From the sequence record NC_019503.1: 64,000 nt of DNA. One strand, written 5' to 3'. The stretch is from Escherichia phage ime09. Shown piece by piece: positions 24,217-63,215 of this stretch (position 1 is its first letter; every line of letters begins with the position of its first letter). The notes under the pieces are model-generated. The model worked only from the letters and a program-made list of their open reading frames with translations, searched no databases and was not told where the DNA came from. The translations under genes and the position numbers were made by a program.

Positions 24217-24429
24217 TCATTTTTGTCCTGTATTTACTTTATGCCGATGCACGGCCTTAACTTTATCAAGGTATTTTTCAAAATTTCGCAATCTAGTATA
24301 GTCTGCCGGAGATTGGTTGAGTGATACTTCTCGACGCAAAGCTGAAATGATATTTCCAACTTCCCTACGAATTTCATCTAATTGAAGAACAGTAAGATTG
24401 CGAAGTTGCTTTTCAGTTAATTGTAGCAT
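24217..24429 (-). CDS. Hypothetical protein (rI.1 position)
   Basis: ORF track 70 aa. Confidence 0.5.
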
Positions 24430-24471
24430 ATATACCCCTTTAGTTAGATAAACCTATTTATAACTTTTGCA

Positions 24472-25053
24472 CTAACCGAGCTTTTTAGTTAATTCATTCC
24501 AATGTTTTCTGCACAAAGAAACATAAATTTCATCACCAATACAGATTTGATTACCTTCTTTAACTGGTGTTCCATCTTCCATTAATCGAGCTGTCATAAT
24601 AGCTTTTTTACCACAATGACAAACTGCTTTTAGTTCAATAAGTTTATCTGCAATCGCCAAAAGTTCTTTAGAACCTTCAAATAATTTTCCAGCGAAATCA
24701 GTCCTTAGTCCATAAGCCATAACAGGAACATTATATGTATCAACAATTCGGCTTAATTGATGAACCTGTTCAGTTTTTAAAAACTGAGCTTCATCTACAA
24801 ATACACAATGAATATCTTTTTGTGCTTCAGCCCATTTATAGAACTCAAAAATATCCATATCATCCGTAATAATATTCGCTTCCTGTTTAATTCCAATGCG
24901 AGAAACGACTTCACAGACAGAATCGCGAGTATCAATAGCAGGTTTAAGAACTAATACACCCATTCCGCGTTCTTTATAATTATGCGCAGCAGTCAAAAGA
25001 GAAGCAGATTTTCCAGCATTCATTGCTGCATAAGTAAAAATTAAACTCGCCAT
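24472..25053 (-). CDS. tk: Thymidine kinase
   Basis: 193 aa, P-loop MNAGKSASLL, C-terminal Zn-binding Cys pairs; matches T4 tk length. Confidence 0.93.
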   Translation of the reverse strand: MASLIFTYAAMNAGKSASLLTAAHNYKERGMGVLVLKPAIDTRDSVCEVVSRIGIKQEANIITDDMDIFEFYKWAEAQKDIHCVFVDEAQFLKTEQVHQLSRIVDTYNVPVMAYGLRTDFAGKLFEGSKELLAIADKLIELKAVCHCGKKAIMTARLMEDGTPVKEGNQICIGDEIYVSLCRKHWNELTKKLG

Positions 25054-25062
25054 ATCACCTTC

Positions 25063-25269
25063 TTAAAGCGTATTCACATAAGCTATTAATTCGTTTTCTT
25101 TCTTATCAAACCGGTCAGCAAATTCTTCTTGCTGTTCGGGAGATAGCGGGCCGTATTCATCATAAAAGGTGTTTGCTTCTGTATGCTCATCTAGAAGTTC
25201 ATGGATAAGCTTAAACAATTTATCTTTTTGTTCTTTACTCAAACTCATAACCATGTAACCTTTAAGCAA
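25063..25269 (-). CDS. Hypothetical small protein
   Basis: ORF track 68 aa. Confidence 0.45.
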   Translation of the reverse strand: MLKGYMVMSLSKEQKDKLFKLIHELLDEHTEANTFYDEYGPLSPEQQEEFADRFDKKENELIAYVNTL

Positions 25270-25457
25270 TATTCTTCTACATGTTGTTTACGACCTTTCC
25301 TATCAATAAAGGTATATTCAACGAATGTTCCAATATAATCTTTATCTACATCATGAGAACTATTAATTGGGCATTTAGTACGGCAAATGCGTTCCCATTG
25401 ACGAATAATTTCTGCTTTGTTTTTAGGATCAAACGGATGCGGGTAATGTGCTTTCAT
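25245..25457 (-). CDS. Hypothetical small protein
   Basis: ORF track 70 aa. Confidence 0.45.
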   Translation of the reverse strand: MKAHYPHPFDPKNKAEIIRQWERICRTKCPINSSHDVDKDYIGTFVEYTFIDRKGRKQHVEEYCLKVTWL

Positions 25458-25908
25458 AATCCACCACTATTAAATCAATATCAGGAGTAAACATGTCGAT
25501 TAATTTAGAAACCTTATCCCAATCACCGCCAGCAATACCACAACCTATGCGTGGGATGTAAATTACTGGTTTAAACAAAAGGGTCTCTGCCTGTAGATTT
25601 AATTCTATCATGCAGTTTACTAAAGCACCATAATCAAGATTAGGACCTGGTTCGTATTGTGTATACAGATTATAGCATATACCAAATCCCGTAGGACTAT
25701 GTTTAAAAACAATAGACATATCGCCTAATTTATCGCGAGAACCGTACTCGGTAGTAGTTTTATCTATTTCTAAAATTTTGGGATAGGCTCTTGCTAATTG
25801 ACCCGCTACACCTGAACCCATAGTATGAAAACAATTGCACCCGTGCGCAATAATATTACCTTGAAGAAATAGGGCGACAATATCGCCCTTGATATATTTT
25901 ACAATCAT
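25429..25908 (-). CDS. Macro-domain-like protein (putative ADP-ribose binding/hydrolase)
   Basis: 159 aa; N-terminal GDI...AHGCNC...MGSGVAGQLARAYP resembles the macro-domain ligand-binding motifs. Confidence 0.55.
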   Translation of the reverse strand: MIVKYIKGDIVALFLQGNIIAHGCNCFHTMGSGVAGQLARAYPKILEIDKTTTEYGSRDKLGDMSIVFKHSPTGFGICYNLYTQYEPGPNLDYGALVNCMIELNLQAETLLFKPVIYIPRIGCGIAGGDWDKVSKLIDMFTPDIDLIVVDYESTLPASV

Positions 25909-26246
25909 CTAGTACTCAATCCTCGATTATAAGAATCTACTAAACGGTCAACCATTGAATGACAAGCGGCTTTATCTTTCTCCTCCGCAACTGAACATTC
26001 TAAGGTATTCCACTTTTTAGCATATCGTTTTAACAATGTATCATTTTTATATCTACTTGATTTATCTCTTTCTCCGTCTTTATATGCATATATTAATTTC
26101 TGCGCAAATTCAGCTTGGCATGCTTTATTTTTCCCGCAATAATCCGCGGCAGTACGGTTTACATACTCTCTAATTTCAGTATATGATGTATTTGCTAACG
26201 CAGAAAATGAAATTAATCCTATACATAAAACCAAAATTTTAGTCAT
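25905..26246 (-). CDS. Secreted small Cys-containing protein
   Basis: 113 aa with N-terminal signal peptide MTKILVLCIGLISFSALA. Confidence 0.5.
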   Translation of the reverse strand: MTKILVLCIGLISFSALANTSYTEIREYVNRTAADYCGKNKACQAEFAQKLIYAYKDGERDKSSRYKNDTLLKRYAKKWNTLECSVAEEKDKAACHSMVDRLVDSYNRGLSTR

Positions 26247-26784
26247 TTACTATTTCCAAAAGTTTATTATTTTTAAGGTAGTTAGCCTTTTCTAGGACTT
26301 CAGAAGCATATTTAGAACCTGCTTTAACATTCCATCCCGAATTATAAGAGGATATAGCCTTTCTTATATCGCCCTTATGTATATTTAACCAATAAGAAAG
26401 TTCAATGTACGCCCAGGAAGCTGAATTGGACCGTTTATTCAACATTCTTTTTATTTCAGTATCGGTCATATTATAACCAAGTTCCTTGACTCTCGCTCGC
26501 ATAGTAGGCAAATAATTTTGGAACATTCCATAGGCATGATGCTTTGGTTTAGATTTTAAATTAACTCCGGCAGAGCTTTCTTGCCATAAAATAGCAGCCA
26601 TTATATGACCCAATCCGCTCTTGTGGATATTTTTGTGTGTTTTATATTTTCCATCCTTAGAAAATTGTTCCCCGAATTGATACGCGTAACGCATGTTATC
26701 GAGTTGGACATTACTGAAAGTATGCTCGGAGCTATGTGCCATCATAGAAATGGCCAATAGACCAGCGAGTAGTGCTTTTCTCAT
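26239..26784 (-). CDS. Secreted lytic transglycosylase-like protein (SLT domain)
   Basis: 181 aa, signal peptide MRKALLAGLLAISMMAHS, SLT-like motifs WQESS (catalytic Glu), GMFQ, SYNSG. Confidence 0.6.
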   Translation of the reverse strand: MRKALLAGLLAISMMAHSSEHTFSNVQLDNMRYAYQFGEQFSKDGKYKTHKNIHKSGLGHIMAAILWQESSAGVNLKSKPKHHAYGMFQNYLPTMRARVKELGYNMTDTEIKRMLNKRSNSASWAYIELSYWLNIHKGDIRKAISSYNSGWNVKAGSKYASEVLEKANYLKNNKLLEIVND

Positions 26785-26791
26785 GCTTACC

Positions 26792-27253
26792 TCATTGAGT
26801 TTTAATTACTGCTTTAGAAGCCTTTCCTGGTAAACGACGACTGTTGATAATTGCCATCCTACACTGAAGTGACGGGTCTTTGAACTTCGCATTAGGTTTA
26901 CAAACTGTAAATCCAAGCCAAAGATTTCCATCTGTGATTTCTAAACGCCCAGGACGATATTCAACCCCATCAATAAAATCCTCGTCAATGTCAGGACGCG
27001 GAGGCATACTCAGGAATTCATTAACTTCTAAAACATGGTCTTTTATTTTATGGAATAATTCAAAAACATATGTCTCATCAATCTCCCGCTGAATTGCACG
27101 ATCAAGAAGATGCTGAGAATATTTTAGATGAAACGATGAGACTCCTGCTGCTTTTGATGCCTCACGAATCTCATTGTTAATTTGACGAAACTCCGACTCA
27201 AAGTGACGACGGAGCTTATTTCGACGGATAAAAACTTCTGTGTTGATAGTCAT
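26792..27253 (-). CDS. regB: Sequence-specific endoribonuclease RegB
   Basis: 153 aa, same length and position as T4 RegB; own early promoter upstream. Confidence 0.8.
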   Translation of the reverse strand: MTINTEVFIRRNKLRRHFESEFRQINNEIREASKAAGVSSFHLKYSQHLLDRAIQREIDETYVFELFHKIKDHVLEVNEFLSMPPRPDIDEDFIDGVEYRPGRLEITDGNLWLGFTVCKPNAKFKDPSLQCRMAIINSRRLPGKASKAVIKTQ

Positions 27254-27279
27254 GTTATTCTCCTCTTAACTGATAGAAA

Positions 27280-27312
27280 AATTATACCACAGTCAAGAGG
27301 AAAAGTAAACAG
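27280..27312 (-). promoter_or_regulatory. T4-type early promoter (minus strand) for regB
   Basis: plus-strand attataccac (-10 on minus) and gtaaac (27305-27310). Confidence 0.5.
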
Positions 27313-27633
27313 TTATTCTTTAAATCTAATCAATTTATTCATAGACTTTGAAACTTCTGCACGAACCTCATGTAGGTTTTTGAGCTGTTCAAGACGTTGC
27401 TCATAGTAAGCAATTTCATCTTCTTCGAGACAGTCCTGTGAATCTTCTTTAAGATATCGTGCATAGTCCTGGAAAGCTTTACGGACTACTTCCTGGAAGT
27501 CATCAAGACTTTGAATTTTCTTAGGAGCAGCAGATACACGACGAGGGGCAGTATAATACTCATAACCAAACCCTGCGCTTAATTGAGCCATTAATATTTT
27601 TCCTCTGGTTGAAACACTGCGCGACAAGCCCAC
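27313..27633 (-). CDS. Hypothetical protein (vs.3 position)
   Basis: ORF track 106 aa. Confidence 0.5.
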
Positions 27634-27893
27634 ATACTGGCTTCTTTGAGCTTCGTTTTAGCAATAGTTAACTGATCGATGCTTTCAGCATAATTCTTCG
27701 CGAATTCATAGTCTTCGCAATTATTTAGCACTTCCCAGAATTCGTCATATAAAGCATCAAAAATAAGTCCTAAACGAACTTCAGCATCTTTGATAGCATT
27801 CACTTTACCGATTTTCTCTTCAGTATGTGGCTTATAACCCTTAATATCTTCAATCATATTTGACTTCCTCACCAGTACATAAATCATATTCAA
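27591..27893 (-). CDS. Hypothetical protein at the vs.4 position; candidate Acb2-like anti-CBASS sponge by synteny only
   Basis: ~100 aa ORF two genes past regB; start may be internal (MIEDIKGYK). Confidence 0.45.
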
Positions 27894-28071
27894 CTAAACG
27901 AATAGGTTCATGAATGCCATATCCTTGAACAGAAATTTCTGTCGTAGGATAAATTCCATCAATATCACCCATGGTCCACGCTTCATTAAATTGCTGTTCG
28001 CCTGAATTACTAAACCATTCTGCGAAAGCATTTAACACATCTTTAGAACCTTCAATAATTATCTTTGCCAT
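27850..28071 (-). CDS. Hypothetical small protein
   Basis: ORF track 73 aa. Confidence 0.45.
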   Translation of the reverse strand: MAKIIIEGSKDVLNAFAEWFSNSGEQQFNEAWTMGDIDGIYPTTEISVQGYGIHEPIRLVEYDLCTGEEVKYD

Positions 28072-28433
28072 TACAAGCTCTCAGTAAAGGTACGAGCGAT
28101 AACGTCGCGCTGCTGTTCCGGAGTCAGAGAGTTAAAGCGAACTGCATAACCGGATACACGGATGGTCAGCTGCGGATATTTTTCCGGATGCTTAACTGCA
28201 TCTTCCAGAGTTTCACGACGCAGAACGTTAACGTTCAGGTGTTGACCACCTTCAATTTTAACCGCAGGTTGTGGTTCAATTTCAATTTCACGGGTATGCA
28301 AACCGTAGAAAATTTCTGGGTCTACAAAAGAGTCCTCTTTAAAAGTTTTAGAGACAATAATTCGTGCTTGAATACCATCTTCAAAATAAATAGTACCTTT
28401 ATGTGTGCCTTCAAGAATTTGATATGCTTTCAT
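28071..28433 (-). CDS. Autonomous glycyl-radical cofactor (GrcA/YfiD-like), host-like C-terminal half
   Basis: 120 aa; C-terminal ~60 aa carry the RVSGYAVRF glycyl-radical motif and appear identical to recalled E. coli GrcA; 3' half of gene is visibly GC-richer than surrounding phage DNA. Confidence 0.85.

Positions 28434-60074: not shown

Positions 60075-63215
<3,141 letters not shown>

Follow-up and report, generated by a model that had tools for sequence, protein, structure and literature searches.

The interval between tk and regB in Escherichia phage ime09 holds a small open reading frame that raises two questions: whether it encodes a genuine macrodomain and, if so, on which ADP-ribosylated substrate the protein would act. 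The preliminary description of this DNA (sequence record NC_019503.1; 64,000 nucleotides, here called the window) had read the frame as a macro-domain-like protein that could reverse either the ADP-ribosylation of host proteins by T4-like phages or host defenses based on ADP-ribosylation, such as DarT.

The gene and its neighborhood

The frame runs from ATG to stop on the minus strand, a detail on which the preliminary description was silent, and the ORF list and translation give a protein of 159 residues (17.5 kDa, pI 5.0). Its placement in the tk-regB interval was correct, as Pfam identifies tk downstream and regB upstream on the same strand (Table 1). The motif strings quoted for it are likewise present in the translation (GDI at residues 8-10, AHGCNC at 21-26, and MGSGVAGQLARAYP at 30-43). 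The window comes from a T4-like Tequatrovirus, and many T4-like Escherichia and Shigella phages match the 12-kb stretch around the frame at 95-97% identity. The matching place in T4, between vs and tk.3, is occupied by tk.4, which carries the annotation "phosphatase; contains A1pp phosphatase motif." Over 155 amino acids, the window protein and T4 Tk.4 share 58% identity (E 1e-70); their lengths are similar (159 versus 155 residues), and all family-invariant residues are common to both. The two alleles have the same upstream region and do not differ over their first 13 codons. The window gene is the Tequatrovirus ortholog of T4 tk.4, also named adfM, and we refer to its product as Tk.4.

Table 1. 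Features of the tk.4 region, in window coordinates, with protein identity to the T4 counterparts
Feature	Coordinates	Strand	Protein identity to T4	Basis and remarks
tk	24472-25053	-	99.0%	Pfam TK, E 1.7e-60; downstream of tk.4
tk.2-like ORF	25063-25269	-	54% (Tk.2)	68 aa; Pfam DUF7438
tk.3	25245-25457	-	91.4%	Identity with T4 Tk.3
tk.4 / adfM coding sequence	25429-25908	-		ORF and Pfam Macro; single macrodomain, 159 aa
tk.4 3' end / tk.3 start overlap	25429-25457	-		29 nt, from ORF coordinates; 4-nt ATGA in T4
Low-identity patch versus T4	about 25430-25800	-		48-76% nucleotide identity in binned global alignment; flanks at least about 86-90% identical; allele-replacement segment
Second glycine-rich (phosphate-binding) loop, residues 119-130, PRIGCGIAGGDW	25519-25554	-		Translation and conservation
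NLYTQ, residues 80-84	25657-25671	-		Gln84 at the position of the catalytic Lys (DarG K80, TARG1 K84)
First ligand-binding loop, residues 21-35, AHGCNCFHTMGSGVA	25804-25848	-		His22, Asn25, Gly31, Gly33; translation and conservation
vs stop / tk.4 start ATGA overlap	25905-25908	-		Read from the sequence
vs	25905-26246	-	96.5%	Between tk.4 and regB
vs.1	26239-26784	-	98.9%	Pfam SLT domain; between tk.4 and regB
regB	26792-27253	-	99.3%	Pfam REGB_T4, E 1.4e-68; upstream of tk.4
rI.-1			100%	
rI			96.9%	
rI.1			100%	

T4 has the same ATGA arrangement of vs and tk.4, at 61386-61389. In a bioRxiv preprint (10.1101/2025.11.20.689424), no T4 gene was depleted more strongly than vs in minimal medium, and vs and tk.4, both conditionally required, are probably translationally coupled through this overlap. 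At the other end of the gene, the window protein has a C terminus four residues longer than that of T4 (…STLPASV), an extension common to some other alleles.

A promoter and terminator scan of positions 24400 to 28200 returned 15 promoter-like sites, compared with 15.1 expected from shuffled sequence, and is therefore uninformative on expression. One of these sites, at 27281-27309 on the minus strand just upstream of regB, has TTTACT and TATAAT separated by a 17-nt spacer, with an upstream TG; it could drive the regB-vs.1-vs-tk.4 string, in a region where promoter-like sites are no commoner than in shuffles. Within codons 7-13 of tk.4, at 25871-25889 (minus strand), sits a terminator-like element on the sense strand: an 8-bp GC-rich hairpin, AGGGCGAUAUUGUCGCCCU, with a U-rich tail behind it. 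T4 matches the hairpin and the 32 nt preceding the start codon at 100% identity, and the match decays just downstream. The element could be an RNA structure or merely the edge of the recombination patch.

The window protein has a macrodomain fold. It matches the Pfam Macro profile (PF01661) with 32 bits against a gathering cutoff of 22 (E 1.3e-7), over profile positions 2-117 of 118, and 794 homologs were found in the protein database at E ≤ 1e-3. By tblastn, relatives are present in 2,788 of 50,697 phage records; these include T-even relatives infecting Escherichia, Klebsiella, Acinetobacter, and Vibrio, together with other phages whose genomes span roughly 78-250 kb, and Escherichia phage PBM-1 encodes an identical protein. 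Together, the Pfam score, the homologs, and the phage relatives place the ORF far beyond chance. A sequence search of the PDB with Tk.4 returned solely macrodomains of a single subclass: Bacteroides BT1257 (E 4e-10), yeast Poa1p (E 1.6e-9), Streptomyces SCO6735 (E 8.5e-8), Mycobacterium tuberculosis DarG (E 4.9e-5), and human TARG1 (E 0.01). An AlphaFold2 model built with 45 homologs (mean pLDDT 94.2, pTM 0.89) shows the mixed alpha/beta macrodomain fold, and Foldseek matched it best to TARG1, BT1257, Poa1p, and DarG in the PDB, at a TM score of about 0.73. The preliminary description had named structure prediction and conservation of the glycine-rich loop as the points on which its macrodomain reading would stand or fall; the fold was recovered, and alignments of 32 and 45 homologs show both loops to be invariant or nearly so. 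Structurally, Tk.4 lies nearer the ALC1-like class (TARG1, DarG, SCO6735, and Poa1p) than the MacroD, viral, PARG, or macroH2A types. Tk.4 is thus a stand-alone macrodomain of the TARG1/DarG/SCO6735 class.

Active-site residues and catalytic type

Invariant positions in the 45-homolog alignment are G8, H22, G23, N25, C26, G33, A35, D49, N80, Y82, Q84, P119, G122, G124, and W130, and at least 90% of the homologs also have G31, G127, and G128. To relate these residues to characterized enzymes, we used profile-profile alignment with hhalign and the PDB profile search, with an M. tuberculosis DarG sequence checked to be identical to PDB 5M3I, a TARG1 sequence that was also verified, and an SCO6735 sequence recovered via its close homolog BT1257 (E 1e-53). 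The Tk.4 family aligns with the DarG macrodomain at a probability of 97.8%, pairing Asn25 with DarG Asn22 and Thr83-Gln84 with DarG Thr79-Lys80. In the PDB profile search, in which BT1257 was also aligned, Gln84 and Ala126 stand opposite TARG1/OARD1 Lys84 and Asp125, the catalytic pair of that enzyme. DarG Lys80 and TARG1 Lys84 are catalytic residues (PMC9411070), and Tk.4 has Gln84 in their place.

This replacement is no sign of a dead enzyme, since SCO6735, which carries Gln85 at the same position, is active. SCO6735 is an efficient hydrolase of thymidine-linked ADP-ribose on DNA and protects Streptomyces from DarT; its Q85A and Q85E mutations abolish activity and N27S nearly does so, and a water-mediated mechanism has been proposed in which Gln85 positions the distal ribose (PMC9411070). 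Its activity has been confirmed with synthetic substrates (PMC12879935). The Tk.4 profile aligns with SCO6735 at a probability of 98.6%, such that H22, N25, and Q84 correspond to H24, N27, and Q85, and the glycine loops to SCO6735 G126 and G128; Tk.4 therefore has a Gln at the Lys position together with the conserved Asn and the neighboring His. Its second loop is almost identical to those of SCO6735 (PRIGCGLAGGTW) and BT1257 (PRIGCGLAGGKW). In the PhiKZ macrodomain AdfM, the N23A mutation, equivalent to Tk.4 N25, lowers activity (PMC13309987). Because the Gln/Asn/His arrangement is that of SCO6735, catalysis is most likely of the Gln-positioned, water-mediated type, and by analogy with SCO6735, Tk.4 would with reasonable probability hydrolyze thymidine-linked ADP-ribose by this mechanism.

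Several features of Tk.4 differ from those of SCO6735 (PDB 5E3B) and BT1257 (PDB 2AFC/2FG1), to which it is about 26-29% identical. In the hhalign alignment, Tk.4 lacks both of the residues with which SCO6735 positions DNA (Lys34 and Lys89), as well as the extended mobile loop: Ser32 takes the place of Lys34, and the SCO6735 loop that bears Lys89 is five residues longer. Tk.4 also has Thr83-Gln84 where SCO6735 has Gly84-Gln85, and it is phage encoded and acidic. The Ser32 substitution, the shorter loop without Lys89, and the absence of the catalytic Lys of DarG and TARG1 all count against a hydrolase acting on DarTG2-modified DNA, as does the pI of 5.0, an unusual value for an enzyme that binds DNA.

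The possibility that Tk.4 is an orphan DarG was considered and rejected. In comparison with DarG (PDB 5M3I, 5M31, and 7OMU), the catalytic Lys80 is replaced by Gln84 and the C-terminal DarT-binding domain is absent (159 residues, against a DarG model of about 330). The scores also fall far below the DarG cutoffs: Tk.4 reaches 27.5 bits on the PADLOC DarG model, covering only the macrodomain part (positions 3-144 of 329), and 27.7 bits on the NCBIfam antitoxin_DarG model, which has a cutoff of 250. There is no darT beside tk.4 in the window, and Pfam finds no DarT domain in tk, the tk.2-like ORF, tk.3, vs, vs.1, or regB.

A functional parallel is offered by PhiKZ gp104, also named AdfM, which removes DarT2-made ADP-ribose from DNA in vitro (Cell Rep 2026, PMC13309987) and, like Tk.4, is a phage-encoded stand-alone macrodomain countering DarTG2. 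In contrast to Tk.4, gp104 is of the DarG type, with the motif FPTKDNW including the Lys, reaches 132.9 bits with the PADLOC model of DarG, and falls in a separate clade; BLASTP between gp104 and the window Tk.4 yields short weak segments only. The name AdfM has thus been given independently to two macrodomain branches, those of PhiKZ gp104 and T4 Tk.4, which annotation pipelines may conflate. On a more speculative view, the AdfM of the Tk.4 type may be a DNA de-ADP-ribosylase of the lysine-free Gln type that was acquired independently of the DarG-type PhiKZ protein.

The DarTG2 phenotype and candidate substrates

The counter-defense role of tk.4 has been published for T4. That tk.4 orthologs match A1pp/macro was recognized in 2006 (PMC1524935), and published work showed that T4 lacking adfA and adfN is still DarTG2 resistant, implying a further anti-DarTG factor. 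In the HIDEN-SEQ preprint of November 2025, in which a T4 transposon library was grown on a DarTG2 host, tk.4 is the sole DarTG2-specific hit and is otherwise dispensable, and a clean T4 tk.4 knockout became DarTG2 sensitive (10.1101/2025.11.20.689424). Its authors describe T4 Tk.4 as structurally similar to M. tuberculosis DarG, rename the gene adfM (anti-DarT factor, macrodomain), and say that enzymatic removal of ADP-ribose from DNA "seems likely"; the preprint text, as far as examined, reports no complementation, catalytic-mutant phage, or enzymatic assay of Tk.4. Our literature searches found no functional study of Tk.4 beyond this preprint and no biochemical activity for any Tk.4. The plating of a knockout on a DarTG-carrying host, which the preliminary description had proposed, has therefore already been done for T4, and the outcome supports the anti-DarT reading.

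Extending these genetic results from the literature to the window, we consider it likely that the window allele also protects against DarTG2, a phenotype demonstrated with the T4 allele, from which the window allele differs at 42% of positions, the second loop included. Expression of the gene is probably early, within the regB-vs.1-vs-tk.4-tk.3 string, and its job would most likely be to shield replicating phage DNA from the DarTG2 toxin-antitoxin defense of the host. In the proposed sequence of events, the DarT2 toxin places ADP-ribose on thymidines of single-stranded DNA and blocks replication; the Tk.4 macrodomain would hold the ADP-ribose by means of its two glycine loops and cleave the ribose-thymine bond, restoring normal DNA. 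By analogy with SCO6735, the window protein would act as a hydrolase rather than a binder.

It is improbable that Tk.4 neutralizes DarT2 mainly by binding the toxin, as an antitoxin mimic, instead of by cleavage. In favor of binding, inhibition of DarT in vitro persists in the catalytically dead mutants SCO6735 Q85A, DarG K80A, and TARG1 K84A and is strongest with SCO6735 (PMC9411070), the phage anti-DarT factors AdfA and AdfB appear from published work to bind the toxin, and deep divergence of the alleles, concentrated outside the active-site motifs, is what co-evolution with a protein partner would be expected to produce. Against this, the residues needed for SCO6735 catalysis are all invariant across the phage and bacterial homologs, which argues for a retained enzymatic function, and the domain with which DarG binds DarT is missing from Tk.4. 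The two mechanisms are compatible, and toxin binding and catalysis may coexist.

There is likewise little probability that the substrates are small ADP-ribose metabolites and not DNA, whether through dephosphorylation of ADP-ribose-1''-phosphate or deacetylation of O-acetyl-ADP-ribose, as for Poa1p, or through degradation of an ADP-ribose-derived immune signal. The "phosphatase" label of tk.4, to which such a reading could appeal, comes from a domain-name match with no assay behind it (PMC1524935), and the sole phenotype reported for T4 tk.4 is specific to DarTG2, a DNA modifier (10.1101/2025.11.20.689424). Yeast Poa1p is an ADP-ribose-1''-phosphate phosphatase, unlike the role proposed for Tk.4; Tk.4 His22 and Thr29 align in the PDB search with Poa1p H23 and S30, residues whose importance is taken from mutant-structure titles only. 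After the conserved Thr, Poa1p has a Ser and not a Gln, as read from the sequence, the alignment ending just before this residue. This Gln never varies within the Tk.4 family, and the DNA-active SCO6735 depends on it.

We think reversal of protein ADP-ribosylation highly unlikely, be it of host proteins modified by Alt, ModA, and ModB or of phage proteins modified by the host, because Alt, ModA, and ModB modify arginine, and cleavage of arginine-linked ADP-ribose by a macrodomain of the TARG1/DarG class is not reported in the macrodomain literature examined. SCO6735 and TARG1 do also strip Glu/Asp-linked ADP-ribose from proteins (PMC9411070), and the reference list of PMC12879935 includes a macrodomain specific for arginine, Legionella MavL; in the T4 screen, tk.4 was dispensable save on DarTG2 hosts (10.1101/2025.11.20.689424). 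We regard as highly unlikely, too, that ADP-ribosylated RNA (uracil bases or RNA ends) is the main substrate and DNA a secondary one: published work shows that TARG1 and TARG1-like macrodomains, bacterial ones included, efficiently reverse uracil-base ADP-ribosylation and that host mRNA ADP-ribosylating systems such as CmdTAC target T-even phages, but CmdTAC is described as a robust defense against these phages, so that they have no obvious counter to it, and the known phenotype involves DarTG2, which blocks DNA replication. Taken individually, each of these four alternatives is less likely than hydrolysis of DarTG2-modified DNA.

Relatives, alleles, and significance

A scan of one genome per species (185,579 bacterial genomes) returned 80 loci with relatives 33-44% identical to Tk.4, in Rhodobacterales, Desulfobacterales, Verrucomicrobia, and other groups. 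ORFs could be called at 71 of these loci, for the most part about 150-190 residues long (range, 146-244), and none approaches the length of DarG. We took the nearest ORF on each side of these 71, by crude picking, and passed the 120 neighbors of up to 520 residues through Pfam, leaving out 23 long ones. No recurrent DarT was seen among the 25 most frequent families of these 120 neighbors, a view that a single DarT could escape. These lengths and the lack of a recurrent DarT liken the Tk.4 family to the stand-alone SCO6735 and not to a toxin-antitoxin pair. The same features mean that genomic context gives no independent support for the link to DarT. The neighbor families are heterogeneous; they include Exo_endo_phos nucleases/phosphatases at 6 loci, EamA at 5, the NAD-salvage families NAPRTase and NAMPT at 3 and 2, and NADAR at 2. 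At about 14 bacterial loci, mostly in Rhodobacterales and Hyphomicrobiaceae, an ORF of 980-1290 residues lies directly upstream.

Within otherwise nearly identical surroundings (Table 1), tk.4 itself is a divergent allele. Nucleotide identity to T4 is 63% within the gene, and protein identity falls from 87% over the first 31 residues to 29% over the last 31, the C-terminal fifth. Catalytic-site residues are intact in both alleles. The second loop reads IGCGIAGGDW in the window protein, the canonical form, and IGAGIGKGNW in T4, at variance with the family consensus; experiments have thus been done on the less canonical of the two alleles. Alleles of the window type (at least 90% identity) occur in at least 311 phage records, and T4, T2, and RB32 carry the other type. 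Between the window and T4 genes, dS is about 1.4 (saturated) and dN about 0.38, for a dN/dS of about 0.27. These values give no support to rapid diversification between the alleles and point, not to recent hypermutation, but to old alleles, kept under purifying selection and exchanged by recombination as a cassette. A second patch that diverges from T4 lies at 25050-25270, where T4 tk.1 is absent (177 gap columns) and the adjoining tk is 99% identical.

One tentative and rather doubtful idea is that the two old, deeply diverged alleles are not interchangeable, each acting against different DarT2 variants or forms of nucleic-acid ADP-ribosylation. Such specificity would perhaps arise from the macrodomain contacting the toxin or a particular sequence context. 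If the alleles did differ in this way, the gene-sized replacement patch would be an arms-race cassette.

DarTG is a widespread bacterial defense, and the counters that phages carry shape host range, which is relevant to therapy with T4-like phages. To this, tk.4 adds no new kind of system, its role having been assigned in T4 in 2025. Many GenBank records still say "phosphatase" or "hypothetical protein," and AdfM-type macrodomain is a better annotation. What sequence comparison may add is the assignment of Tk.4 to the Gln type, SCO6735-like and not DarG-like, and the dimorphism of its alleles. Membership of the T4-type AdfM in the lysine-free SCO6735-like branch, and not the DarG branch, predicts a different mechanism and a different inhibitor sensitivity, and the presence of sharply distinct tk.4 alleles in near-identical genomes offers a natural experiment on specificity.
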